A DNA stretch of 64,000 nucleotides, taken from the IMG/VR virus record IMGVR_UViG_3300010149_000008. One strand, given 5' to 3'. A program made the translations under genes and the position numbers. This DNA is from a virus (lineage: Duplodnaviria; Caudoviricetes). Below the pieces are notes generated by a model. That model was not told the DNA's origin and did no database searches. It worked only from the letters and a program-made list of their open reading frames with translations. The first letter of the stretch is position 1, and each line of letters opens with the position of its first letter. Below are positions 3,194 through 45,573 of this stretch, one piece after another.

Positions 3194-3638
3194 TACCTGA
3201 AGCTACAAAAGAATCTGGTTTTACTTTGCACACAAATCCACAACCTGTAATGTAACCTTTTATCATGCTTTCGTATCTAGAAGAATTGTGCTGTTTATTA
3301 GTATTAATATCAGCATGTATTTCTATGTTTGCACAATTAATTTTTTTTCTGATTTTAAAAGCAATGTCTATAGAATCAGTTGTTTCTTTAAGTAGTCTTT
3401 TTGATAAATCATAATACGAATCGTCAGAAACTTTTCTCTTAGTATAAAAAAATCTTCTATCATAAAAGCTGTTGTCATTTATTACGCATATTGCGTTTGC
3501 AAAAACAAATTTTCCTCCGAGCTTAACACTATCAGTACCTACAATAATTTTATGATTTTTGTTTTTTACAACTTTTTTTAATATTTGTATTACTTCTGTT
3601 TGAGTAAATATTTGTTTTTTGCTGTTTTTCCATTTCAT
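3165..3638 (-). CDS. RNase H-fold protein, DUF458/YkuK-like
   Basis: IIVGTDS, RLLKETTDSI, IEIHADIN, VKPDSFVASGIAD match the family pattern. Confidence 0.8.
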   Translation of the reverse strand: MKWKNSKKQIFTQTEVIQILKKVVKNKNHKIIVGTDSVKLGGKFVFANAICVINDNSFYDRRFFYTKRKVSDDSYYDLSKRLLKETTDSIDIAFKIRKKINCANIEIHADINTNKQHNSSRYESMIKGYITGCGFVCKVKPDSFVASGIADVYTKNY

Positions 3639-5047: not shown

Positions 5048-5662
5048 TTAAATTAAGTCTTCTATCTTTTGTATGCCAAAACTTCTTAACTCTTCCGGTT
5101 GAACTTCAATATCAATAAACTCTTTTTTAGCTTTATGCTCTTTAAAGTCACCACTTTCTAGACCTAACTTATGAGGTACACCTTCTAAATTAGCAATATT
5201 TCCGTTAAGTAAATCAGATTGATCAATATAGATTTTTACATGATGATCGAGTTTAGAACCTTTTGTTCTCAAATGAAATCTTACTTTGTCTTTAGAAGCA
5301 GAGCCAAATCTCATCCATGCAATACCTGTGCTGTTAAAAGTATCTAAAAGATTTGAACATTCCATAAAATTTTCTGAATTTGTATCAGAAGATAATATTT
5401 CTTCGTTTAAAGTATTGAGTATGTTAAGCCACACTATATTATCTTCTGACACTTTTGTTTTTGCCCATGCTCTTCCTCTGCCTGAAAACATTGCTTTTAT
5501 ACTTGCATTGCTTGTATGACTAATGTTTAGATGACAATTGATTGCTTCGTTAAATATTTCGCGAAGTAATGTAAGTTTAATTTCGTGCTGATCTTCTTCA
5601 AGCTTAGAAATAATATTATGTACACCAGGAAAAATAATTTCTTTGATTAATTGAATGTCCAT
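5048..5662 (-). CDS. Hypothetical protein, GRG/AW(I/M)R paralogue family copy 1
   Basis: FSGRGRAW, GIAWMRF, FHLRTKGSKLDH, LEGVPHKLGLE. Confidence 0.75.
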   Translation of the reverse strand: MDIQLIKEIIFPGVHNIISKLEEDQHEIKLTLLREIFNEAINCHLNISHTSNASIKAMFSGRGRAWAKTKVSEDNIVWLNILNTLNEEILSSDTNSENFMECSNLLDTFNSTGIAWMRFGSASKDKVRFHLRTKGSKLDHHVKIYIDQSDLLNGNIANLEGVPHKLGLESGDFKEHKAKKEFIDIEVQPEELRSFGIQKIEDLI

Positions 5663-7664: not shown

Positions 7665-8213
7665 TTAATAAGTATACTCAAGCAATCCTTCAAGCTTTAG
7701 AAATTTCTCCCATTCTTTAAGCTCGAGCTCAGTACAGCTTGAAAGCTTAGCCTCTTTTATTATCTCATTTGTTTGTCTAACAATTTCTTCAGCTTCTCCA
7801 TTATTAATTGTACTGTTTTTTGTTTTTCTTCTTTTAGGCAAAGGCTTTTCTTGCTTTTTCTTTCTATCTTCTGGATTGATTTCTAACTGCATCTTTACTG
7901 GTGTATTTCCAAGCAAAGGTAAATCCTTGACTTGATTATCATTTATAATTAATACACAGTCTGGGTGATCAATTTTTGAACCTCTTTTCCTTACTTCGAA
8001 AATAACTTGAGGATTATCTTCGCTTCCTGTAGGTTTTGAAAATCTTATCCAGGCAAAACCTTCTCTTTCAACATGCCTTACATACTCAATACCATCAGGA
8101 GAATTTGCAATTGTCATTACTTTATTATACACATTAGAATCATTAGGTACCTTTACCCAACAATTACCTCTGCCTTTATATCGATCTCTTATTGTATTTT
8201 TAAAATTTGACAT
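7665..8213 (-). CDS. Hypothetical protein, GRG/AWIR paralogue family copy 2
   Basis: YKGRGNCW, GFAWIRF, FEVRKRGSKIDHP, LGNTPVKMQLE. Confidence 0.75.
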   Translation of the reverse strand: MSNFKNTIRDRYKGRGNCWVKVPNDSNVYNKVMTIANSPDGIEYVRHVEREGFAWIRFSKPTGSEDNPQVIFEVRKRGSKIDHPDCVLIINDNQVKDLPLLGNTPVKMQLEINPEDRKKKQEKPLPKRRKTKNSTINNGEAEEIVRQTNEIIKEAKLSSCTELELKEWEKFLKLEGLLEYTY

Positions 8214-27091: not shown

Positions 27092-27248
27092 ATATTATAT
27101 CCTTTTTGATTAAATGATTGAATGTACCTTATGATATATTATAATATGAAATTAATCTTACTTGCACGTAATTAAGCTAAAATAATTCTATCTTTTTTAA
27201 GATGACACAAACTATGAGACTGTTGACGATACAGGAGCTTAATACTTT

Positions 27249-29978: not shown

Positions 29979-30293
29979 TTAATTAACTTCTTTAATCTTG
30001 CCTTCTATATTAACTCTTAACTTGTCGTTAGTATAACATCCCATGCTGTTCTCATGATAAATACCTTCTAAATCTCTAAATCTATATACACCACTTCTTG
30101 ATCCATAACTATTTCTCCAAGACTTACTACTAACTACATGTCTCATAACATGTCCTAAAGGATGCTTGCAAAAGATTACATAGTTAATAAACTCTTCTTC
30201 TTCCACTTCTTCAACATTAGAATCAGAATGATTGCATGCAGCTGTAAATAATAACATCAAAATAATAAAAACCTTACTCATCAAATACTCCAA
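29979..30293 (-). CDS. Putative lipoprotein
   Basis: MSKVFIILMLLFTAAC lipobox-like. Confidence 0.6.
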   Translation of the reverse strand: MEYLMSKVFIILMLLFTAACNHSDSNVEEVEEEEFINYVIFCKHPLGHVMRHVVSSKSWRNSYGSRSGVYRFRDLEGIYHENSMGCYTNDKLRVNIEGKIKEVN

Positions 30294-30307
30294 TCAGATT
30301 AGATACA

Positions 30308-30595
30308 CTATTTTAAACTACTAACACCATAATCCACAGATAACTTTTGCAAGTCATACTCGAGTCTATGCAAACCTAAACCATTAGAAGTCTCCATGAA
30401 AAGCTTAAGCAATCCTGCAACAGCAAAATCATTTGCTTGAACATCATCATATCCATCCTCTTCAGAATTATTCACTATCTGCATAACTACATCAGATAAC
30501 AAATCTTTAGACACTTCAATATGCTCATGTCCAGCATAAAGCCCTAATGCTCTATCTCCAACTTCATTGCTATATCTCATACTAAAACCTTTCAA
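30308..30595 (-). CDS. Hypothetical protein
   Basis: Co-oriented ORF. Confidence 0.55.
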   Translation of the reverse strand: MKGFSMRYSNEVGDRALGLYAGHEHIEVSKDLLSDVVMQIVNNSEEDGYDDVQANDFAVAGLLKLFMETSNGLGLHRLEYDLQKLSVDYGVSSLK

Positions 30596-30626
30596 AAGCT
30601 GTTAAAATAAAAATATATAAATTACT

Positions 30627-30851
30627 CTACTTCATCATCCTCTTAAGCTCATAATACTCGCTGTTAAACATACTATGCAAACTACACTTACCTAACTTCA
30701 ACCTATCACCAGGCTCCATCTTACCCACATACGTAGTCAATCCTCCACTCTCACAAACTGTTACCTTAACTTCATTATTCAAGTCTAACCAAACTAAAAA
30801 CACAACCAATAACAAAAAACATACTATACTAAATTTCTCGCTAAACATCAT
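30627..30851 (-). CDS. Small membrane-anchored protein
   Basis: N-terminal TM segment. Confidence 0.55.
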   Translation of the reverse strand: MMFSEKFSIVCFLLLVVFLVWLDLNNEVKVTVCESGGLTTYVGKMEPGDRLKLGKCSLHSMFNSEYYELKRMMK

Positions 30852-31352
30852 AATCTAATCTCCAATCATAAATAATTAAAATAACTAAATACACCTAACT
30901 CTCTCATTATAAACAAATATATGTCTACTTAACACGCACTCAATTCAAATCTCATATCCCTTCAATCCACAATATCAACGCTAAAAAACTAAACGTCACT
31001 AACATCACTTCTAAAAACTCATACATCACCTCATCTCAACCAGTAATGTAACTCTTCAAAACTCCTCAACTCAGGCTCAATACTTCCACTCATATCTCTT
31101 TATAACCCTTCTTCTTTATTACCACCTGTCAACAACAAGTGGCTGTATTTAATCTCTGTTAACGTTAATATATAAACACAACAGTTAATACATAAACGAC
31201 GTAAAATGTAAAACAGAATAAACCAGAGAATAACTGCAATATAATCTGACTAGCACACGGGACTTAGCTCTAGACACACTCTGATTTGATTAGACTTTTA
31301 TATATAAAATGACTGGGCGACGCGTGAGAGCGTGCGATGTCATGGCGGTGTG

Positions 31353-31628
31353 TCAGTGATGTGTTTTGTGGTATTCTTCGAAGTCGTAGTTTACGTTTTC
31401 AAAGCTTTCTTGAACGTGTACAGACTTTCCGCTATCGAAGTGTACCCAGCAGCTTTCATTGCTTGTTTCTGAATTGTTATTTTGTGTTTGTGGTGAAACA
31501 TGTTCGATAACGTGAGAGACGCTAGCCATTGATACTGTCATTCTGCTGCCGCTATTAACTGTGACGTATGAAGTAAGTGATGTCATATGTATAATCCTTT
31601 GATATGTATGTTTTGTTGTTTTGTACAA
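31353..31628 (-). CDS. Hypothetical protein
   Basis: Likely start MTSLTSY after AAAGGA. Confidence 0.6.
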   Translation of the reverse strand: MYKTTKHTYQRIIHMTSLTSYVTVNSGSRMTVSMASVSHVIEHVSPQTQNNNSETSNESCWVHFDSGKSVHVQESFENVNYDFEEYHKTHH

Positions 31629-31657
31629 ATAAGTTTTGTTTGTTATAGTATAATAGA

Positions 31658-31918
31658 TTAAAGAGATAGAAAAGATGTATTAGCTGTTTCTACAGTTTCG
31701 TTTGTTTCATTATCGATGACCGTCATTTCTATCTGTTTGTTTTCCAAGTCCCATCTTAAACAGTTGTGTTCGTCTGTTATAGGTGAAGTAAGTTCGCATA
31801 ACAAGTCAATTTTTTTATTAACAGCTTCTTTATTAACCCTAGGGTAATATTCAGTTTTAGGAAGTTGTTTTTTGTTTGCCGGTAATGAAGTGTGTATGAT
31901 GTATACTCTGTATTGCAT
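31658..31918 (-). CDS. Hypothetical protein
   Basis: Promoter 31961-31991. Confidence 0.6.
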   Translation of the reverse strand: MQYRVYIIHTSLPANKKQLPKTEYYPRVNKEAVNKKIDLLCELTSPITDEHNCLRWDLENKQIEMTVIDNETNETVETANTSFLSL

Positions 31919-32276
31919 ATAGTTAATATTCTTTTTGTAGATTTGTTTGAATGATGTTATATTATATAATGATGATTAAACAATGTGCACGTATTGTGCG
32001 AGGACGAAGCTGGAGGTGGCTGAGCCGAATAAGCTATTAGCCGGGCTCGGAGTGAGCATTGTGAATGTGTGCACTGAGAAGAAAAGCTGCTTTCTCGTTG
32101 TGGAGGTACAATAGAGCGTTTATTATTTTGTTTGCGCTCATACATAGCAAGCTTATAAAAGAATTCTTTTGCGTCACAGTTTAAAGAAAAAAGGTTCATT
32201 ATAATCTCTTTTAGCTAATATTACACGCCGCGCGACGACGCGAAAGGTTAGAAACACGGTTAACGTTGGCATAGTG

Positions 32277-32305
32277 AAGCAGCTCAGTTCGCGATAGAGC
32301 TGCTT
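32277..32305. other. Stable hairpin (terminator or RNase III-type site)
   Basis: AAGCAGCTC-N11-GAGCTGCTT 9-bp stem downstream of 32333 gene; no clear U-tract. Confidence 0.5.
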
Positions 32306-32332
32306 GATTACTGCTTTTTGCGGGGGCTGGAG

Positions 32333-32680
32333 TCAATTATTGTTTAGATACATATTGCTGAACTTTATCTGCATCTCTGTAGGGACATCGTACGAGTCTT
32401 TACTGACTGCGAGCGGGATATCGCCGAACGTGTCGAAAGCTTGGATGACTGATAAGACTGTTGCGACATTGGGGATAACGCGCGTTCCGTCTTTAAGATA
32501 GTGAGGAATGATAAAGCGATAATGTTGAGCACGTTCTATGATGTTATCTTTTTTAGAAGCTGATAGACCTTGTGGTATTGACCACGTTGCGAAGTCAGAC
32601 ATAGATATATCCTTTGTGTGTTGGTATGTATAGCCTAGAGAGTATATTATACTTCTAGGTAGTGTCACTGTGCACGTCAC
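32333..32680 (-). CDS. Hypothetical protein (likely start near 32602, MSDFAT)
   Basis: AAAGGA RBS before MSDF; the track start lies inside promoter 32646-32676. Confidence 0.55.
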   Translation of the reverse strand: MTCTVTLPRSIIYSLGYTYQHTKDISMSDFATWSIPQGLSASKKDNIIERAQHYRFIIPHYLKDGTRVIPNVATVLSVIQAFDTFGDIPLAVSKDSYDVPTEMQIKFSNMYLNNN

Positions 32681-32747
32681 GTGACGACGCAGCGGGTGGT
32701 AGTTATGCCGGGAAGATGAGTTATATTAAAGGCCGTAGCCTTAAGAC

Positions 32748-33722
32748 TTAGCTGTTAGCGAAGATGTCTTCATCCATGTCTTCGATATCAAAGTCGTTTA
32801 AGTCATCGGCAAGATCTTCAAGAGTTAATACTTCTTCAGTTTCGGTCGCGACGTCTTCAGTTGTTTGATCAGCTTCAGCTTCTGTTTCTTTTGCTTCAGG
32901 CTTCGCGATGACTTCTAGCTTTTTTGAGTGAGGAGTCCCATCTAGAGTTTCGATAACATTTTCTAGGTCAGCTGTTGGGATATAATGTAGATGTTTCGGG
33001 TGATCATCAGTTGCGCCGTTAATGCGAACTTCAAATGCAGCGGATTGAACTCCATTATCTAGACGAGGGCCTGAAAATCTGATCCATGCATAACCAGCTT
33101 CTTTAATGAATGCTCTGTAATTAGATGTATCTGAGTTTTCTTCATCAAACTTATTTAGAGTTTCTTCGATATCGCTGATTTGTAGCTTTACCCATTTAGC
33201 TCCGCGTCCTCCGAACTGAGCTTTGAGGACTGATCGCCAATCTGTACCATCAGCTGCCTTAGCTGTTCGACCGCAGAGATGTTTGATATCAGATTTGATT
33301 AGATTATCTAGATGACGTTTGAATTCAGTTACCTTTGGAGATCCGCCGTCTTGAGTGAACTGATTGAAAAGTTGAATGATAAGATCTTGTGAGCTCATGT
33401 TAACCTCATTGTTATTAGGAGTTGAATTAATTGAGTTATCCATGTTATTGTCCTCAGGATTGATTGGTTGGGGTTGTTGAGTTATTGTATCATTGTTGTT
33501 TTCTGTTTTACACGCTTCGATTATTTCCCAGTCATATACCAGCCAACCATGTTCATCACTCAGTGCGTCAGTGATTTGATAGCTGTCAACTGCAGTTGGA
33601 TCTTCGAAGTATTCAGTAAGGTCTACTACGATTGGGATACCGTTTTCTTCAGCAAACTTATCATGTTCCTCAGTGTTATCAGGGTTAGGTAAGTCAAAGT
33701 CCCAGATGATTTGAATATGCAT
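32748..33722 (-). CDS. GRG/AWIR paralogue family copy 3 with extra N-terminal domain and acidic tail
   Basis: GGSPKVTEFKRH, FGGRGAKW, GYAWIRFSGPR, FEVR, GTPHSKKLE; internal RBS+ATG at 33443 and 33398. Confidence 0.8.
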   Translation of the reverse strand: MHIQIIWDFDLPNPDNTEEHDKFAEENGIPIVVDLTEYFEDPTAVDSYQITDALSDEHGWLVYDWEIIEACKTENNNDTITQQPQPINPEDNNMDNSINSTPNNNEVNMSSQDLIIQLFNQFTQDGGSPKVTEFKRHLDNLIKSDIKHLCGRTAKAADGTDWRSVLKAQFGGRGAKWVKLQISDIEETLNKFDEENSDTSNYRAFIKEAGYAWIRFSGPRLDNGVQSAAFEVRINGATDDHPKHLHYIPTADLENVIETLDGTPHSKKLEVIAKPEAKETEAEADQTTEDVATETEEVLTLEDLADDLNDFDIEDMDEDIFANS

Positions 33723-33759
33723 ATTGTATCCTTTATTGGATGAGTGGTGGTGATGGTTT

Positions 33760-33790
33760 ATTATAATATGTGTTTTATCTAAGTTACACG
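33760..33790 (-). promoter_or_regulatory. Early-type promoter with upstream CGACGAC motif
   Basis: CGTGTAA-N18-TATAAT; CGACGACCC at 33800. Confidence 0.75.
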
Positions 33791-34063
33791 CACAAAGTGC
33801 GACGACCCCTAGGGTTGTAACCCCTAATCATTTAAAGTGCTCCTCTTTTAAAGTCATAGATAGCTGAGATTATTGCAAAAACGCCGATGCAAATTGCTCC
33901 TTGAATTGGGTAAGCAAGAATAAACCCAATTGCAAAAGAAATGAAAATATATATTAAGATCGATGCTAAAAGTAATGCCGGCATAATATATGCTCCTTAT
34001 AATGATTGGGTGGGGTAGATGGTTTATTATAATATAGGTATTAACTTACTTACACGCTTAGAG

Positions 34064-34261
34064 TTAGCTATCGTCGAGATGTGCCATAAGATCGTTCATG
34101 TTTGGCTGTTCTTCTTCAACTTCAGAATCGAAGTAAATAATACCTTCGTTTTCTTCAAACTCCATCCCGTCGTTAATTGATCGTTGAATGAATTTGATAG
34201 ACGATAGATTGTTGACCTTAATAGTCATATTGACATTAACAAAGAATGCTTTGTTTTTCAT
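34064..34261 (-). CDS. Hypothetical acidic protein
   Basis: Own promoter 34304-34334. Confidence 0.6.
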   Translation of the reverse strand: MKNKAFFVNVNMTIKVNNLSSIKFIQRSINDGMEFEENEGIIYFDSEVEEEQPNMNDLMAHLDDS

Positions 34262-34294
34262 AATTTAAAGTCCTTATTGGATGAGTGGTTGTGG

Positions 34295-34336
34295 TGATGG
34301 TTTATTATAATATGGATTGTATCTTATTTACACGCT
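34295..34336 (-). repeat. 42-bp promoter cassette, copy 1
   Basis: Identical to 34629-34670. Confidence 0.9.
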
Positions 34337-34343
34337 AAATGAA

Positions 34344-34604
34344 TTAGCCAATAGCTTCCATTTCAGCCATCAATCTTTCTGAACAGATTACTGATCCAGT
34401 AGCTTTAACTGTAGCAACTTCTTCAGGTCCTCCATCTTCCATTTCATACGTTATATAAGCTTCAGTATTGTCATCATTAAAACCCATTGAGCTCCAATAA
34501 CCTGAAAGATTTGAATGTGTTTCAGAAAGAATATCATTAACAGTAAAATAATTTAAGGGTTGAGGTAGGGGAGAAAGTTTTTTATTAGGACTTAAATCTT
34601 CCAT
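34344..34604 (-). CDS. Hypothetical acidic protein
   Basis: Own promoter 34638-34668. Confidence 0.6.
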   Translation of the reverse strand: MEDLSPNKKLSPLPQPLNYFTVNDILSETHSNLSGYWSSMGFNDDNTEAYITYEMEDGGPEEVATVKATGSVICSERLMAEMEAIG

Positions 34605-34628
34605 AATAATTCCTTTAATTAGTGCCGT

Positions 34629-34670
34629 TGATGGTTTATTATAATATGGATTGTATCTTATTTACACGCT
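34629..34670 (-). repeat. 42-bp promoter cassette, copy 2
   Basis: Identical to 34295-34336. Confidence 0.9.
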
Positions 34671-34912
34671 GATAGTTTCTTCTTTATTTTATCTTCGATA
34701 CGCCTGAGATCTTCTAGTTTTCCAGATAAGCCGTTGTTAGCTTGTTCTACAACTTGTGCAACAATAGTCACGTTAAGATATCTTTTCAGATCTGATCTAG
34801 ACATTTTATCAATATTCATATTGTATCCTTTTAGTTGATTGGTTGTTATGTTTTATTATACTACATAGTTAAATGTATTACACGTCGTTTGTTATCTACC
34901 ATTCCATTCTTA

Positions 34913-35257
34913 TTACCTAGACAAATGATATTGAAGATCCTCGAGGGTGGTGTGAAACATCTTAGCCTCTGCAGACATACCTTCTTGCGCAAACTTCCTT
35001 AACACAGCAGACGTAGAACGTGCCATACCAACATAGTCTGTGTAACCAAGAGAGAAGTCTTCGCACTTCCTCACATCGCCGAGGAGTGAAGTCTTTGCTG
35101 AGTGCAAGTCAATCATACCGTTATTAAAGGACATCTCTAACTCAAGATAACCACCGAAGAAAGGCAACTTGACCGTCTTAGACTTGTTGTAGTTACTAAG
35201 CTTCAGGTCATGAAAGAATTGCTGGAGTCGCTTGTCAAAGTCAGGAAAGTTTCTCAT
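34913..35257 (-). CDS. Hypothetical protein
   Basis: Own promoter 35290-35320. Confidence 0.65.
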   Translation of the reverse strand: MRNFPDFDKRLQQFFHDLKLSNYNKSKTVKLPFFGGYLELEMSFNNGMIDLHSAKTSLLGDVRKCEDFSLGYTDYVGMARSTSAVLRKFAQEGMSAEAKMFHTTLEDLQYHLSR

Positions 35258-35700
35258 TTTGAATCCTTGTTGGTTAGTGGTTATGGTTTATTATACACTA
35301 ATAATGAAACTTTATACACGCATCGCGATGAGGTCTGTCGTCGCGACTAGTTCTATATATTATATTATAGATGGTTATATACCACCTACCTTGAACCGAA
35401 GCGGGCACGACGACGCAGGCCTAGACCTAGACAAGTCAGTTATTATTCTCATTATTATTTAAATTGTTAACTGTAATAACTAAAGGTTCTTCGAAAGTAA
35501 TAAACTCTACTTTCGGTTGCGTCTCGTTATTAGCAGCAACAAATGCAAATGTAGAAAGAAGTGCTGAAGCGATTAGTGTCATGATGTCGTATCGATCGAA
35601 CATGTATCTCCTAGTTTACAGATTAATGTATGTTTTATTTGAGTTGTTAGTATGAATGTTATAACTTAGTTGCACAGTAACTCGATAATCGACCCAGGGT

Positions 35701-36225
35701 CTATGTCATCTGAGTAAGATCCTCGTTGCGCGACTTAACATCCTCGAGAAAAGAAAGGATCATCTTCTCATGATCATCGATATGAGATGTATCGAGACCA
35801 CCAGCAGCTTGAACGTCTCTCATCTTATCAAGTCGAATATCGAACCACTTAAAACCATCAAGCAAGATTTGCTTCGGAGCGACGTCAGCTGGCTTGAACT
35901 CCTCACTCATGTCGAATCCGTCACCATTGATGTGATCCCACTTACTGACACCATGATAGTGACCCAAGATATCGTCGTAGTCTGTGCAGTTCGACCATCC
36001 TGAGTTCCAGTAGACGTAGCCATGCTCATTCTTCATGAAATCCTTCGCATCGCTGAAAGCCTTACTAAGCTCAGGATCGAGAGACTCGATGTAGCTGTCG
36101 CGGATGTTTCGGAGCTCTTCTGTCTCGCGGAAACGCTCGCTAAAAGCCTCGATGCTGTTCCACATTTCGTGGTAAGCATTGTGGTTATGCGTGATAGTGT
36201 CTCTAACTTGTTGTCTTGTTGGCAT
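35701..36225 (-). CDS. Hypothetical protein
   Basis: AAAGGA RBS; GC-richer codon usage. Confidence 0.7.
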   Translation of the reverse strand: MPTRQQVRDTITHNHNAYHEMWNSIEAFSERFRETEELRNIRDSYIESLDPELSKAFSDAKDFMKNEHGYVYWNSGWSNCTDYDDILGHYHGVSKWDHINGDGFDMSEEFKPADVAPKQILLDGFKWFDIRLDKMRDVQAAGGLDTSHIDDHEKMILSFLEDVKSRNEDLTQMT

Positions 36226-36276
36226 GCCAGTTTCCTTTAACGTAGGTGTTATGATGATAGGTAAAGTATTTAAACG

Positions 36277-36498
36277 TCAGTCAATAGGCAAACCAAATCT
36301 AGACTTTGCCTTTCGGATATTGTAGTCTAATGTTGATCTAGAAGTTGCGCTTCCTGCGTAAGTTTTAATTTCTGTTCCTTTAACACCCGCGAATATAAGA
36401 AAGCCGCCTTTCTTGTCACTTTCAAACCAAACGCTATGTTGAGGTTTGTTAGCTAAACGTTTACGGAATGGACGTCCTTTTCTTTGTTCGTTGATCAT
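36277..36498 (-). CDS. Hypothetical basic protein
   Basis: AAGGAG RBS, promoter 36538-36568. Confidence 0.65.
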   Translation of the reverse strand: MINEQRKGRPFRKRLANKPQHSVWFESDKKGGFLIFAGVKGTEIKTYAGSATSRSTLDYNIRKAKSRFGLPID

Positions 36499-36593
36499 AA
36501 TGATCTCCTTGTGTTGTTTGTTATGCCTTGTGAATGTATTATACCATGATTAATATCTAGTTTGCACGCATCGGGTCGACGCTGCGGGTAGTA

Positions 36594-37010
36594 TTAACTT
36601 CTGTTCTTGCTGTTTGCAATCCTTACAAGTTGTGCTGAATGTTTGAGTGTAATCTTTCTTGCTCTATCCATTACTGTTCCTCCATTTTGTGCATATCTAC
36701 CAAGAACAGCTGCACATGCGTAATGACTTAAAGACTTCTTGGGGAAAACTTTCATGTTTCTATCATTAAGACCGAGAATCCATCTAGCCATTCTAGTTCC
36801 AGCTTTAGCATCTGCAGCAGAGAAACCTATGCTATTAAGATTATTTGTATTCGCAGTTTTCTGCTCGTCTCTAGTTTGCATCTCGAACAGTCGCACGATG
36901 CCTCTCATCACTGCATCATCATTAGTCATTAATAGCTGATCGATGTCTTCTCGCGTCCATATCTTTATTTTCATTGGAGTGTTCTCTTTGTTTGTTGGTT
37001 TGTTGTTCAA
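36594..37010 (-). CDS. Conserved phage hypothetical protein
   Basis: AVMRGIVRLFEMQTRDEQ...NSIGFSAADA motif recalled from phage proteins. Confidence 0.7.
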   Translation of the reverse strand: MNNKPTNKENTPMKIKIWTREDIDQLLMTNDDAVMRGIVRLFEMQTRDEQKTANTNNLNSIGFSAADAKAGTRMARWILGLNDRNMKVFPKKSLSHYACAAVLGRYAQNGGTVMDRARKITLKHSAQLVRIANSKNRS

Positions 37011-37223
37011 TGAAGTTCTCTATGTTTTATTGATGTTGATGAGTAGTTATTGCGTCGTTAAACGTCGTCATTATTCATTTTGCTTAACTCTTTTTCTTCA
37101 TCCCATGTATACTCGACGTATATATTTCCAATAACAAACCCGAGTGATAATGTAACGATTGAAGCCACGATCATTTGTTCCTCCTTATGTTTTATTATAC
37201 ATTGTCTTTCGTCGTCTTACACG

Positions 37224-37493
37224 TTACGGGTTCTCTGGGAAATGTTCCTCCTTTATATCTTGTGTTCGAACTTCACATTCATCTCGGAAGAGAACGTATC
37301 CGACTTCGTGATTTGTAACCTTGTCATTCGTCACCAAGATAAACGTATATCTTGTTTCGTCACCGTCTAGACCTCGATCTAGATCATCAGTCACTAATCG
37401 TTTCCCCTCTTTGATCGAGGTAAAAGGACCAAACAATTCTGTTGAATCAGTATATCCTCGTTGAGTAACTGTGATAAATATCTGATCTGTCAT
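37224..37493 (-). CDS. Hypothetical protein
   Basis: GAGG RBS, promoter 37542-37572. Confidence 0.65.
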   Translation of the reverse strand: MTDQIFITVTQRGYTDSTELFGPFTSIKEGKRLVTDDLDRGLDGDETRYTFILVTNDKVTNHEVGYVLFRDECEVRTQDIKEEHFPENP

Positions 37494-37607
37494 ATTAAAC
37501 CTCTCGTCGTATCGTTAATGATTGTTTGTCCTTACATCTATATTATACCACCGGTCCAAAACTATTTACACGTCGATGACGACGCTACTGGCCGTAGCCA
37601 CTGCGAA

Positions 37608-37997
37608 TTAGTAACCCATAACTTCGTTATAAGCATCGCATCCACCCATCATGCCAGCCTCCATCGCGATCTCACGACGCCAATCTTCCATCCACTCATC
37701 GTCATCAGCTGCATCATCTGCTTCACGGATTAACTTGACATCGTCAGTGTCCCATGGATGGAAGAGCATGTCGTAAACCATTGTTCCACTTGCAAGACGT
37801 CGCCCACAAAGCTTGTCCTCGTAATCGTCTCCTTCGTAAAACCAGATCGCATAACCTTCAGCTCTTAGCTTTTCGTCGCACATCGCGATCATCTCTTCTT
37901 CAGACATGTCACTCTCCTCAGAAAGGATCATCTCATCTGACCAGTCATCTTCGTTGCGAGGATCATTGTTGCTGCCTGTAATAAATAATGCTTTCAT
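37608..37997 (-). CDS. Hypothetical highly acidic protein
   Basis: AAGGA RBS; ends EAGMMGGCDAYNEVMGY. Confidence 0.7.
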   Translation of the reverse strand: MKALFITGSNNDPRNEDDWSDEMILSEESDMSEEEMIAMCDEKLRAEGYAIWFYEGDDYEDKLCGRRLASGTMVYDMLFHPWDTDDVKLIREADDAADDDEWMEDWRREIAMEAGMMGGCDAYNEVMGY

Positions 37998-38293
37998 ACT
38001 GTTTCCTTAATCGTTAAGTTGTAAAGTTAAATTGAGATTGAGACGCTTATCGGGTCATAGCCAAATAACGAATGCGATAAACGCGAGATAAGTGATAATA
38101 TCAGGTATCATATAAACTTCCAAGTGAAACCTCCTTACCGAGTGAATGGATTGTAGATATATATTGTTTGCCTTACATCTATATTATAGATTAAGATATA
38201 AATTATTTACACGTATCGTCACGACGCGACCAAGGCTGGTCACGCCAAGTCACCTTAGATCAGGTCACTTATCGAAGCTTCGCGACCAGAGGA

Positions 38294-39109
38294 TTAGCCC
38301 TCGTAAGTGCCAAAGAGATCTTCATCGCCATCTTCGTCGAATTGATCAGCGCCAAGTCCTTCACTCGCGAGGAAGTCTTCCCAGTCTTCAGGATTATCAG
38401 TTGTTGGAGGCTCAGCGTGAGCTGAACCACCGTCGTCGTAAGGATTCAGCTCGGATGCGCTAAGCTCTTGAACTTCATAGTTCTCATCAGTCTCGTCGCT
38501 CACTGGATCATCGCTCACTGGATCATCGCTAGGCTTTACTTCGTCTTTCGTCGCGATTACCTCGAGCTTTAGGGAATGAGGAGTACCTTTGAGAGGACTA
38601 ATCTTATCATCAAGCTCCTCATCTAAGATGTAATGGAGAGACTTAGGGCAGTCATAAGTAGATCCAACTGTTCGAACTTCGAAAGCTGCCATGTTCTTTT
38701 GTTCTTTGTTCTTTCCCGTCGTGACGCGAGGTCCCGCGTAGCGTATCCAAGCATGGCCGGCTTCTTCAGTCCAAGATCGATAATCAGCTGTATCAAAGCC
38801 TTCATCATCAAGTCGATCAAGAGTTAATGAAAGCTCATCATTTGAAACTTCCTGCCACTTAGCTCCTCTGCCGGCAAAACGAGCTTTCTGAACTGAACGC
38901 CAAGATGATCCATCGACAGCAGATGATCCTCGACCTGAACAGAGTGGCTTGATCTTGTCCTTGATAAGACGATCAATGTGACGCTTGAACTCTGTTACTT
39001 TTGGCGATCCACCTGCAGCAATAAAGTCGTTGAACAGGTTTTCGATTAAACTGTAATGATCCATAGGAGTCTCCTGGACTTGAGTTTGGGTTTGAGTTGC
39101 GTTAGACAT
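38294..39109 (-). CDS. GRG/AWIR paralogue family copy 4 with acidic tail
   Basis: GGSPKVTEFKRH, FAGRGAKW, GHAWIRYAGPR, FEVR, GTPHSLKLE; GGAG RBS, promoter 39150-39180. Confidence 0.8.
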   Translation of the reverse strand: MSNATQTQTQVQETPMDHYSLIENLFNDFIAAGGSPKVTEFKRHIDRLIKDKIKPLCSGRGSSAVDGSSWRSVQKARFAGRGAKWQEVSNDELSLTLDRLDDEGFDTADYRSWTEEAGHAWIRYAGPRVTTGKNKEQKNMAAFEVRTVGSTYDCPKSLHYILDEELDDKISPLKGTPHSLKLEVIATKDEVKPSDDPVSDDPVSDETDENYEVQELSASELNPYDDGGSAHAEPPTTDNPEDWEDFLASEGLGADQFDEDGDEDLFGTYEG

Positions 39110-39149
39110 GTTTTTCTCCTCAGAGATGATTGATTGGGGATGATGAGAT

Positions 39150-39180
39150 ATTATAAAACTGTTTAAACAAGTTATGCACG
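39150..39180 (-). promoter_or_regulatory. Early-type promoter with upstream CGACGAAGC
   Basis: CGTGCAT-N18-TATAAT; motif at 39190. Confidence 0.75.
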
Positions 39181-39644
39181 CCGATGACCCGACGAAGCCG
39201 AGGCTATAATCACCAGTACTTAATCAAAGCTACTGGTATAGCGAGCATAAACAACGATAACATTATCGGTATGAAGCCTTCCATGTTACTCCTTTCTTCA
39301 GATATATGTTGTGGGATGAGGTGTTGCCTTATATCTACATTATAGACTAAGGCCAAACTAGTTTACACGTGGCCCGACGAAGCGGACCGTGGTTAACTGA
39401 GATTATCTTTATCGATGCGGATCGGAACCTTTCCTACCCTACATCTTTATTATACCAAAACTGTCAGCACGTTACACGCCAGATCTCCTCCACCAGAACT
39501 TCTCACTACCTCAGCCCGACGTGTAAAAGGACTGATGTTCTGTGGATGATAACCTACATTGTCAAAGAATTCTTGGGAGGAGACCGGTTAAACCCCGATC
39601 ATCCAGTGGAACCACCTCTGGGTTCCTTTCCCTCCTTATGTTTT

Positions 39645-39675
39645 ATTATACAACAGTCTCGTCGAGAGATACACG
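39645..39675 (-). promoter_or_regulatory. Rightmost early-type promoter
   Basis: CGTGTAT-N18-TATAAT adjoining the GC-rich repeats. Confidence 0.7.
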
Positions 39676-39800
39676 TACGCCCCCTACGGGCCCCGGCCCT
39701 CTAAAGGGCCCCTCTAGAGCCCCCCTCTAGGAGCCCTCTGAAACTCAGTGTGCACGCCCGCGGGGGCCGGCTAAGTTAACTACCCGAAATTTCTTCGCGG
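39676..39800. repeat. GC-rich degenerate tandem repeats (CCCTCT[A/G]) at the strand-switch point
   Basis: GGCCCTCTAAAG-GGCCCCTCTAGAG-CCCCCCTCTAGGAG-CCCTCTGAAA followed by GCCCGCGGGGGCCGG. Confidence 0.7.
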
Positions 39801-39996
39801 GACTTTTCGAAAAAGTTTTAGGGTACACACTTGACCACACCATCTGAATATTTTGTGTATACGATTAAGTTGTGTAATACTATCAATGAGCGTTTGCGGC
39901 ACTTATTTGGAATAGTAATTTTTCAGTTTTGTGCAAAAAACTTCGGGAGAAATTTCCGAAAACTTTTACATTTTTATTGATAAATAAATTTAACTA

Positions 39997-40013
39997 ATAT
40001 TTATTATAGAAAG
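39997..40013 (+). promoter_or_regulatory. Candidate late promoter element
   Basis: ATATTTATTATAGAAAG, identical to 11821-11837 (minus). Confidence 0.55.
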
Positions 40014-40017
40014 AGTT

Positions 40018-40341
40018 TTGAATATGAGAATAACCGAGAGAAGATTGAGAAGACTGATAAGAAGTGTAATCAAAGAAACTGTTAGCGATTATCGTTTAAG
40101 CGTTGATTTTAGTCAAAAAGTTGAAAGTATGATTGACGAAGTTAAACCAGGGTTTATTAAAAATTGTCGAATGTTAAGAATTTTTGATGAAAGTGACTTA
40201 GATGATTATAAAGTTAGCGATTTTTTAAGAAAGTATTTAGGTGAGGTTATTCATCTTATGGGAGAAGAAACAGCCAAGAGGCGATTTGCCGGCAACTATC
40301 ATAGTGTTACTCAAGATTTTAAAAGATACTTGGGAATGTAA
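40018..40341 (+). CDS. Putative internal head protein
   Basis: MRITERRLRRLIRSVIKE leader; upstream ATATTTATTATAGAAAG. Confidence 0.65.
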   Translation: MNMRITERRLRRLIRSVIKETVSDYRLSVDFSQKVESMIDEVKPGFIKNCRMLRIFDESDLDDYKVSDFLRKYLGEVIHLMGEETAKRRFAGNYHSVTQDFKRYLGM

Positions 40342-45279: not shown

Positions 45280-45573
45280 ATGAAAAGTGATGATTTATAT
45301 ATCATACAATCAGACGTAACAGGAATGATTAAAGTTGGTAGGTCAAAAAACCCTGACAAACGTTTAAAGCAGCTACAAACTGGCAATCCAAACAAGCTTA
45401 GACTTATTGCTTTTTTTAAAGGCGAAGGGTGGAAAGAAAAACTAATTCATGAAGAACTTAAACGTTGGAGAAAAGAAGGTGAGTGGTTTAGCTATGATTG
45501 TGTAGGTAGTATACCCGTAAGTCTTTATGAAAAAATTGATTTTGGTTCATTTGATGATTGGTGGGATAAGTAG
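45280..45573 (+). CDS. GIY-YIG nuclease, T5orf172/MUG113-like
   Basis: LYII...IKVGRSKNPDKRLKQLQTGNP...EKLIH...EGEWF. Confidence 0.85.
   Translation: MKSDDLYIIQSDVTGMIKVGRSKNPDKRLKQLQTGNPNKLRLIAFFKGEGWKEKLIHEELKRWRKEGEWFSYDCVGSIPVSLYEKIDFGSFDDWWDK

Follow-up and report, generated by a model that had tools for sequence, protein, structure and literature searches.

A few cultured phages, namely T5, SPO1, those of the Kayvirus type and XacN1, are known to carry their first-expressed genes in long terminal repeats. The host-takeover module of SPO1 lies in a terminal redundancy of ~13 kb and its role has been shown genetically, and T7, whose terminal repeat is gene-free and 160 bp long, carries strong inward-facing promoters of the host type at its leading, first-entering end. 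T5 and BF23 (Demerecviridae) carry their pre-early genes, those of first-step transfer, in a ~10-kb repeat. Their DNA also has specific nicks in one strand, at which it breaks (PMC10644984), and the Xanthomonas jumbo phage XacN1 has direct terminal repeats of 66 kb that contain 56 tRNA genes (PMC5852040). Here, we examined a GC-richer block of small genes found at about 31.3 to 39.8 kb of the IMG/VR virus record IMGVR_UViG_3300010149_000008 (Caudoviricetes); the window, that is, the whole stretch of DNA analysed, is 64,000 nucleotides long and all positions refer to it. Our results suggest, with moderate confidence, that the virion genome is linear, with the arrangement R-U-R, and that this block corresponds to its long direct terminal repeat to within ~0.65 kb; R denotes window positions 31,266-39,192 (7,927 bp), the core of the block. 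A repeat of this size would be similar to those of T5 (10,219 bp) and BF23 (9,743 bp; PMC10644984).

The evidence that carries this reading comes from the ends of contigs. The same phage was traced in many public assemblies by exact-protein look-up, including a contig of 256,231 bp (ENA ERZ27249212), and seven contigs of it (99.6-100% identity; our contig labels are L numbers) start exactly at 39,192 with TCGGGTCATCGGCGTGCAT and run leftwards into the block. They represent at least 3-5 independent datasets: L007 and L030 (JGI), L008 and L012 (Logan, raw reads, k=31), L011 (MEGAHIT, k=141), L015 (SPAdes) and L016 (Tara, k=127), with L015 and L016 belonging to a slightly different strain. One of the seven, L007 (7,929 bp), spans exactly 31,266-39,192, and in the Logan contig L033 the phage sequence, read leftward from 32,647, stops at 31,266 and gives way to 27 nt of Illumina TruSeq adapter (AGATCGGAAGAGCGTCGTGTAGGGAAAG), an adapter junction which indicates that several sequenced fragments end at that base. 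The left end thus marked lies within ~100 bp of a discontinuity in GC content and skew, at the edge of a conserved boundary element. Contigs of the flanks behave otherwise, since those on the right end at 39,160, 39,252, 39,747, 39,824 and 39,881 (0 of 5 at 39,193) and those on the left between 31,036 and 31,280 (0 of 5 at 31,265). Both points are crossed by other contigs (L006, L017-L021, L030, L009, L010 and L014), as is required by the internal R-U junctions, and exact ends of opposite polarity that face into the block, together with crossing reads, are what R-U-R predicts after assemblers collapse R. As a control, a strain-variation break at ~27.23 kb in the same datasets has its ends (27,227, 27,232 and 27,233) scattered over 6 nt. 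The first-pass annotation of this DNA had placed a genome end near 39.8 kb and proposed a long terminal repeat; a fixed end was indeed detected, ~0.6 kb away at 39,192, and the repeat agrees with the one-sided fixed ends of opposite polarity at 31,266 and 39,192, but ends at the same motif elsewhere could be nicks of the T5 kind.

Two simple causes of the break at 39,192 were rejected: a deletion variant, because the contigs start inside the short repeat GCTTCGTCGGG and not at its edge, and adapter trimming, because the end recurs in Logan contigs, which are untrimmed, and the sequence around it does not match adapter k-mers. The coverage tags of the SPAdes contigs (2-4x) are too noisy to read depth from, and the terminus sequence had no match when IMG/VR and JGI contigs were scanned with exact patterns, though JGI contigs with the sequence exist in another collection. 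At 39,896 two contigs start and at 39,881 one starts from the other side, with an overlap of 16 nt; they probably come from one sample, and no motif or repeat accounts for the break.

The right end sits in an 8-bp motif, GA^CG[AC]N[AG]C, of which there are 21 copies where 5.2 would be expected; the plus strand has 15, ten of them in or beside the block, and the copies of the block mostly lie 9-15 nt upstream of an early -35 box. The same kind of end recurs in other species of the group, where 6 of 72 complete contigs start with TC-N5-14-CGTGYA (0.09 expected, a 65-fold enrichment) and the mirror-image end is not enriched. In L086, whose copy of the hallmark protein encoded by the first gene of R is 80% identical, the contig starts 83 nt upstream of that gene, the same distance as here, and L038 starts 1 nt from the homologous base. 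On the strength of these recurrent exact ends at the motif across species, we propose that a sequence-specific nuclease may act at GA^CG[AC]N[AG]C across the group. T5 and BF23 have sequence-specific interruptions, and the motif-linked contig ends found here would fit such nicks, although double-strand cuts would look the same; unlike the T5 motif (Pu^GCGC), the one described here lies upstream of promoters.

The GC-richer block is real. The GC content of R is 0.399, and 396 other windows of 7.9 kb have a mean of 0.295, a standard deviation of 0.012 and a maximum of 0.342; the hand counts behind the first-pass annotation (30/60 at 38341-38400 and 12/60 at 3301-3360) were exact. A two-boundary maximum-likelihood change-point fit puts the compositional edges at ~31,980 and 39,840-39,900, so that the compositional block is offset ~0.65 kb rightward of the pair of physical ends. 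Coding GC content is 0.41 in the block against 0.307, the gain on the sense strand being mostly C, GC content at third codon positions is 0.16-0.55 (mostly 0.3-0.5) in block genes against ~0.22 elsewhere, and non-coding GC content is 0.374 in R against 0.273 outside. The features noted at both edges are present. On the left, the GC skew of the plus strand inverts, from -0.7 to +0.2, at ~31.15-31.3 kb, with the palindromes TTTTATATATAAAA (31,296-31,309) and TTAACGTTAA (31,159-31,168); on the right there is a strand switch, with the last leftward gene starting at 39,109, the first rightward gene at 40,018 and GC-rich non-coding DNA between them. The long terminal repeat of T5 is slightly GC-richer too (0.40 against 0.37 in the next 20 kb), but the step here is of 10 points, not 3.

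This organization is conserved. Among cultured phages, jumbo phages, XacN1 and phage G among them, have the helicases closest to that of the window (~30% identity), and at least seven related phage contigs share the GC-rich block, its gene order, the boundary element and the skew switch, with hallmark proteins that are only 45-57% identical. The layout was seen in L001, L005, L034, L075, L077 and L078, all six with the skew switch, and by the boundary element in L112 and L128. It consists of a divergent GC-rich non-coding junction, the hallmark gene, which is the first after the junction in relatives too, the GC-richer block, a gene of a 91-amino-acid family and a C-depleted tract, and the first and last genes stay the same when the length of the block varies from ~2.7 to 9.5 kb. 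The boundary element (~230 nt) has the core (A/G)GCT-NN-GTCCYG followed, after 120-122 nt, by the invariant 11-mer GCCACTTGTTG (31,133-31,142), and is found once per contig in the 7 aligned relatives and in 16 further related contigs. Given the divergence of these relatives, the GC excess of the block must be actively maintained. T5 also has a special non-coding region at the inner border of its repeat, the injection stop signal, to which the ~230-nt element and the C-depleted tract could correspond by position; in T5, however, the stop signal is inside the repeat, and here the boundary element and the tract are outside it.

Within the block, the promoter-like motif GTG[TC]A[ATC]-N15-19-TA[TC]AAT has 15 occurrences (1 per 530 bp). 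The leftward genes that lie to the left of the block have 17 in 26.8 kb (1 per 1.6 kb), which makes these sites ~3x denser in the block than in the remaining leftward array. Three more stand in the non-coding DNA at 39,193-39,900, and the plus strand of the whole window has a single one. The expectation that nearly every gene has its own promoter was therefore roughly right, at about 13 of 17 genes, and the block has a trait of the SPO1 module, a cluster of small genes with individual promoter-like sites (15 for ~17 genes in 7.9 kb). A generic scan for sigma-70 promoters and terminators gave nothing above shuffled sequence, and the companion claim that the genes are monocistronic was not borne out, as there are no intrinsic terminators beyond chance. 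In SPO1, too, dense small genes, most of them with their own early promoter and coding for proteins without known families, lie in a long terminal repeat; the two phages differ in lineage and host and have no sequence relationship.

An Rfam scan of the whole window found five tRNAs only, which read the codons TTA, AGA, AAA, ACA and, if the CAT tRNA is of the Ile2 type, ATA. The use of these five codons drops by 0.08-0.33 in the block, whereas that of other A-ending codons changes by -0.15 to +0.12 (Mann-Whitney p=0.0035). At the same time ATC rises to 0.49 in the block from 0.10 in the leftward genes outside it, and likewise TTC (0.50 against 0.14), CTC (0.18 against 0.02), GTC (0.25 against 0.08), CGC (0.15 against 0.01) and AAG (0.48 against 0.25). 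The fall of the tRNA-read codons supports the proposal that codon usage in the block is adapted to translation at a time when the phage tRNAs have yet to accumulate, and the codon shift fits as an explanation of much of the GC excess. Neither of the two single causes that were considered is sufficient. A uniform mutational GC bias, or conversion bias, was rejected because ACC, GCC, TCC and CCC do not rise in the block while NTC codons go up 3- to 9-fold, and codon selection alone was rejected because non-coding GC content is raised as well; the codon tuning suggested by the first-pass annotation is supported in part. The non-coding excess is partly due to GC-rich conserved elements, and recombination from repeat to repeat may add to it. 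XacN1 resembles this phage as a jumbo phage with long direct terminal repeats and in its helicase, and differs from it in that here the tRNAs lie outside the repeat, whose genes avoid the codons that those tRNAs read.

Under the R-U-R arrangement, a genome of ~264 kb would be packaged, reduced to 256 kb once assemblers collapse R to one copy. R would be a conserved immediate-early module of ~17 small genes, always beginning with the hallmark gene, and its promoters would belong to an early class used phage-wide (CGTGTAA-N17/18-TATAAT). In the right-hand copy of R the first promoter would lie 9 nt from the tip of the DNA and the genes would point inward, continuing into a further 27 kb of early genes, for a total of ~35 kb inward from the right end, with R first and then the AT-rich array and its tRNAs. 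If the right end leads injection, as we infer, the genes would be exposed in the order of their transcription. T7 likewise has its first promoter a few bases from the DNA end and its early genes ordered away from it, but its gene-free repeat of 160 bp differs from the 7,927 bp with ~17 genes considered here. The left copy of R would point outward and may be fed additionally by the three promoter-like sites in 39,193-39,900. With their host-like codons (ATC, TTC, CTC, GTC, CGN and AAG up; TTA, AGA, AAA and ATA down), the genes of R would depend less on the five tRNAs of the phage and could be translated before these are made. Candidate signals for directing end formation are the conserved elements that flank R closely on both sides, a single sequence-specific nuclease might make both the terminus and T5-like interruptions, and the C-depleted tract past the inner border could, speculatively, be an injection pause site or an R-loop origin. 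T5 and BF23 have the same overall order: small early genes, most of them without annotation, fill the repeat, and an array of further small early genes and a cluster of tRNAs come next; this block differs from the T5 repeat in lacking A1, A2 and dmp homologues and shared protein families in Pfam and PHROG scans of its proteins, and in belonging to a jumbo phage of ~256 kb. A host-takeover function of the block genes could be proposed only by analogy with T5 and SPO1.

A further elaboration, which we consider doubtful when taken as a whole, is that, across this widespread phage group, the promoter-proximal motif is a programmed strand-interruption site, the outermost used copy of which is the genome end, with one nuclease that would both define the repeat and mark or activate the first promoters. 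The boundary element and the C-free tract would then act as injection-pause signal or R-loop origin, and the GC content of R would be kept by selection for tRNA-independent translation, perhaps with repeat-to-repeat recombination.

An early-gene long terminal repeat is a known kind of structure; a probable one in marine jumbo phages of a group that is abundant and uncultured is new. To our knowledge, the 10-point GC split, the avoidance of codons read by the phage's own tRNAs and the promoter-linked end motif have not been described for the T5, SPO1, Kayvirus-type or XacN1 models. If confirmed, the R-U-R arrangement would fix the true genome ends and size for this phage group and would point to the gene set likeliest to act first on the host; it would also mean that phage termini can be recognized without access to reads, from contigs of public assemblies that end at one exact base or run into stray adapter.

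Several observations weigh against this arrangement. The doubling of R is read indirectly, from contig ends, and the left end at 31,266 is represented by two contigs (L007 and L033), possibly of one library. In the relatives, no contig was seen to end at the homologous left boundary, and in the relative P0019 the predicted left end received no support, as two short contigs cross or overshoot it. The GC-rich zone extends 650 bp past 39,192, and the first 700 bp of R are of intermediate GC content. The promoter class is identical in R and in the 27 kb to its left, so that nothing marks R as earlier, and the raised non-coding GC content means that codon selection is not the whole cause of the excess. 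There are also exact ends at other copies of the motif, with the DNA to the left, at 32,004 (two contigs), 32,687 and 37,582, and on the opposite side, with the DNA to the right, at 38,225 and 27,227 (one each), while the motif copy at 39,377 has no contig ends. Motif-linked nicks or alternative cuts therefore exist, and 39,192 could be a major nick and not a terminus. The opposite-side ends, at 27,226/27,227 and 38,224/38,225, fall exactly at GA^CG of the motif, and one of them lies 4 kb outside the block, which indicates that cutting or nicking is not confined to it.

These ends lead to the most serious alternative, in which the block is an early module present in a single copy, with no repeat; the contig ends would be T5-like nicks at GA^CG[AC]N[AG]C, with 39,192 as the most nicked site, and the true ends would be elsewhere or the genome would be permuted. 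Exact ends do occur at six copies of the motif (39,192, 37,582, 32,687, 32,004, 38,225 and 27,227), the motif is as enriched as described above, and there is precedent in T5 and BF23, whose virion DNA is nicked specifically in one strand and breaks there (PMC10644984). Repair of the ends at a nick leaves an exact end only on the fragment that has the 5' end of the nick, which would match the one-sidedness observed; this property cannot, therefore, separate a terminus from a nick. What favours a terminus lies elsewhere. Position 39,192 halts 7 of the 12 contigs that reach it, against 0-14% at other motif copies, and its partner at 31,266 has the opposite polarity, no motif and adapter support. 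In addition, L007 is bounded by exactly these two positions, and nicks leave unexplained both the discontinuity in composition and skew and the conserved element at 31,266. For these reasons, a terminus at 39,192 is favoured and we regard nicks alone as an unlikely explanation.

Headful packaging from pac-like sites, with 39,192 as the main start, other motif copies as rarer ones and a leftward course, would turn the block into a pac region plus the ~3% redundancy of the first headfuls. This would account for the shared polarity of most exact ends, with the DNA to the left, and R amounts to 3.1% of the genome, a typical headful redundancy. However, the cut that ends a headful is imprecise, yet two assemblies share the exact position 31,266, with an adapter junction in one of them, and the boundary element is conserved while the length of the block ranges from 2.7 to 9.5 kb, which a packaging ruler does not predict. 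A headful mechanism therefore seems to us quite improbable.

Assembly artefacts, such as branch points between strain variants, low coverage or read trimming, clearly explain many of the breaks seen here (ends scattered over 31,036-31,280, 38,166-38,218 and 27,227-27,233), and several of the datasets may be re-assemblies of the same libraries. For the two exact ends, they are a very improbable cause: assemblers with k from 31 to 141 reached the identical base, whether the data were trimmed or not (Logan works from raw reads), and a strain variant has it too. The contigs do not begin at the border of GCTTCGTCGGG, where a deletion variant would place them, the end at 31,266 carries an adapter, and the start signature is enriched 65-fold in other species. 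Recent horizontal acquisition from a GC-richer phage or host, which the first-pass annotation had kept as its alternative and which the sharp 10-point GC step and the lack of family annotation for the block genes could suggest, can be dismissed as extremely improbable, because at least seven relatives with proteins 45-57% identical share the block, its gene order, the boundary element and the skew switch, the promoters are of the phage's own class, hallmark paralogues also occur in AT-rich parts of the genome, and an old insert would drift to the composition of the genome unless its GC content were actively maintained. Even taken jointly, artefact and horizontal transfer are highly unlikely.

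The coordinates of the block and of its genes are given in Table 1. The block has ~17 small genes, and every convincing one is on the minus strand, in agreement with the leftward orientation claimed for it. The proteins had been described as acidic, which holds for the larger ones (isoelectric points, pI, of 4.1-4.8), whereas five are basic. Scans of all block proteins against Pfam and PHROGs returned two PHROGs only, both of unknown function, and the hallmark protein has no Pfam or PHROG family; a comparison of the block with 50,697 phage records found no near-identical DNA match.

Table 1. Position of the features of the GC-richer block and its borders in the window (^ marks the contig end within a sequence; aa, amino acids).
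Position	Strand	Feature	Details
30000..31130	-	C-depleted sense strand (73 C vs 296 G), just outside R	plus-strand GC skew to -0.77
31083..31332	-	conserved non-coding boundary element across the putative left terminus	aligned in 7 phages
31255..31280	+	putative left terminus, plus-strand 5' end at 31,266	GGGACTT^AGCTCTAGAC
31266..39192		putative direct terminal repeat R, one copy assembled	GC 0.399; contig L007 has exactly the same span
31353..32680	-	last four genes of R: 115, 80, 86, 91 aa	91-aa family is last before the boundary in relatives too
32003..32010	+	motif copy	recurrent minor end 32,004 (L056 and L059 start there)
32686..32693	+	motif copy	contig end 32,687 (L031)
32748..33722	-	second hallmark paralogue in R, 324 aa, extra N-terminal domain	48% identity to the first; profile E=1e-98
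33832..35257	-	AT-richer sub-block: genes of 114, 53, 86, 65, 50 aa	each behind a near-identical ~65-nt promoter-leader cassette
35701..36225	-	174-aa helical protein	best-conserved gene of R: 62-83% identity among 25 clusters; predicted template modelling score (pTM) 0.72
36277..36498	-	73-aa basic protein	
36594..37010	-	138-aa basic protein	phrog_21015 (no known function)
37224..37493	-	89-aa gene	protein 91% identical in L034
37581..37588	+	motif copy	contig end 37,582 (L020)
37608..37997	-	second gene of R, 129 aa, very acidic, pI 4.1	syntenic homologues in L001, L005, L034
38223..38230	+	motif copy	opposite-side contig end 38,225 (L013)
38294..39109	-	first gene of R, hallmark family, 271 aa	core of ~165 aa plus acidic tail ending D/E-D/E-[LIM]-F
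39181..39198	-	putative right terminus, minus-strand 5' end at 39,192	GACCCGA^CGAAGC, 9 nt upstream of the -35 box of the first promoter
39193..39900	-	non-coding, GC 0.48, just outside R	three leftward promoter-like sites; near-invariant segment ~39,620-39,840

The hallmark family has ~500 metagenomic homologues and four copies in the window, two in the block (GC content 0.47 and 0.40) and two far to the left in AT-rich DNA (0.32 and 0.30). The latter are shorter paralogues (5,048-5,662 and 7,665-8,213, minus strand) at the far end of the leftward array, and they provide a natural control, which shows that composition tracks location and not protein family. The core of the hallmark protein was modelled confidently (predicted local distance difference test, pLDDT, of ~90) and had no significant fold match when searched with Foldseek against PDB, BFVD, AFDB clusters and ESM Atlas. 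VIA-align gave a weak likeness (Z about 5), recurring in three libraries, to the Tudor-like domains of CarD, CdnL and Mfd, which interact with RNA polymerase, and this modelled likeness is a lead and not a result. Its acidic tail resembles the tips of the tails of single-stranded DNA-binding proteins (SSB). Fold searches with the 174-aa helical protein also gave no match.

The promoter-leader cassettes of the AT-richer sub-block form a repeat family, D1-D5, with a spacing of 266-334 nt at 33,458-34,900. The DNA of this cassette island is 82% identical to part of L001, far above the neighbouring genes, which suggests an exchange of cassettes between phages.

Some observations concern the DNA on either side of R. 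The C-depleted tract on the left covers three small genes and 280 nt of non-coding DNA, and all relatives examined have the same tract, 1-1.5 kb long, after the block; RNA transcribed from it would be rich in G with almost no C, a composition that would favour R-loops. On the right, the non-coding segment at 39,620-39,840, read in the minus-strand orientation, is nearly invariant in four phages whose adjacent proteins are only ~50% identical. It lies directly upstream of the outermost leftward promoter, contains conserved stretches such as CACTGAGTTTCAGA and GGGGCC...TAGAGCCCCGGGGC, and could serve as a signal for packaging, as an origin or as an insulator, or be an RNA. All relatives seen (L001, L005 and L006) conserve a 97-aa protein with T5orf172/MUG113 (GIY-YIG-like) similarity (45,280-45,573, plus strand), encoded a few kb rightward of the junction, which is a candidate for the motif-specific nuclease. 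Finally, the strain L014 (ENA ERZ27286472), 98.9% identical, was compared against window positions 39,950-40,233, just to the right of the strand switch, and has ~735 extra bases with a gene of 249 aa, flanked by a duplication of ~130 bp; the junction is a hotspot for gene gain.

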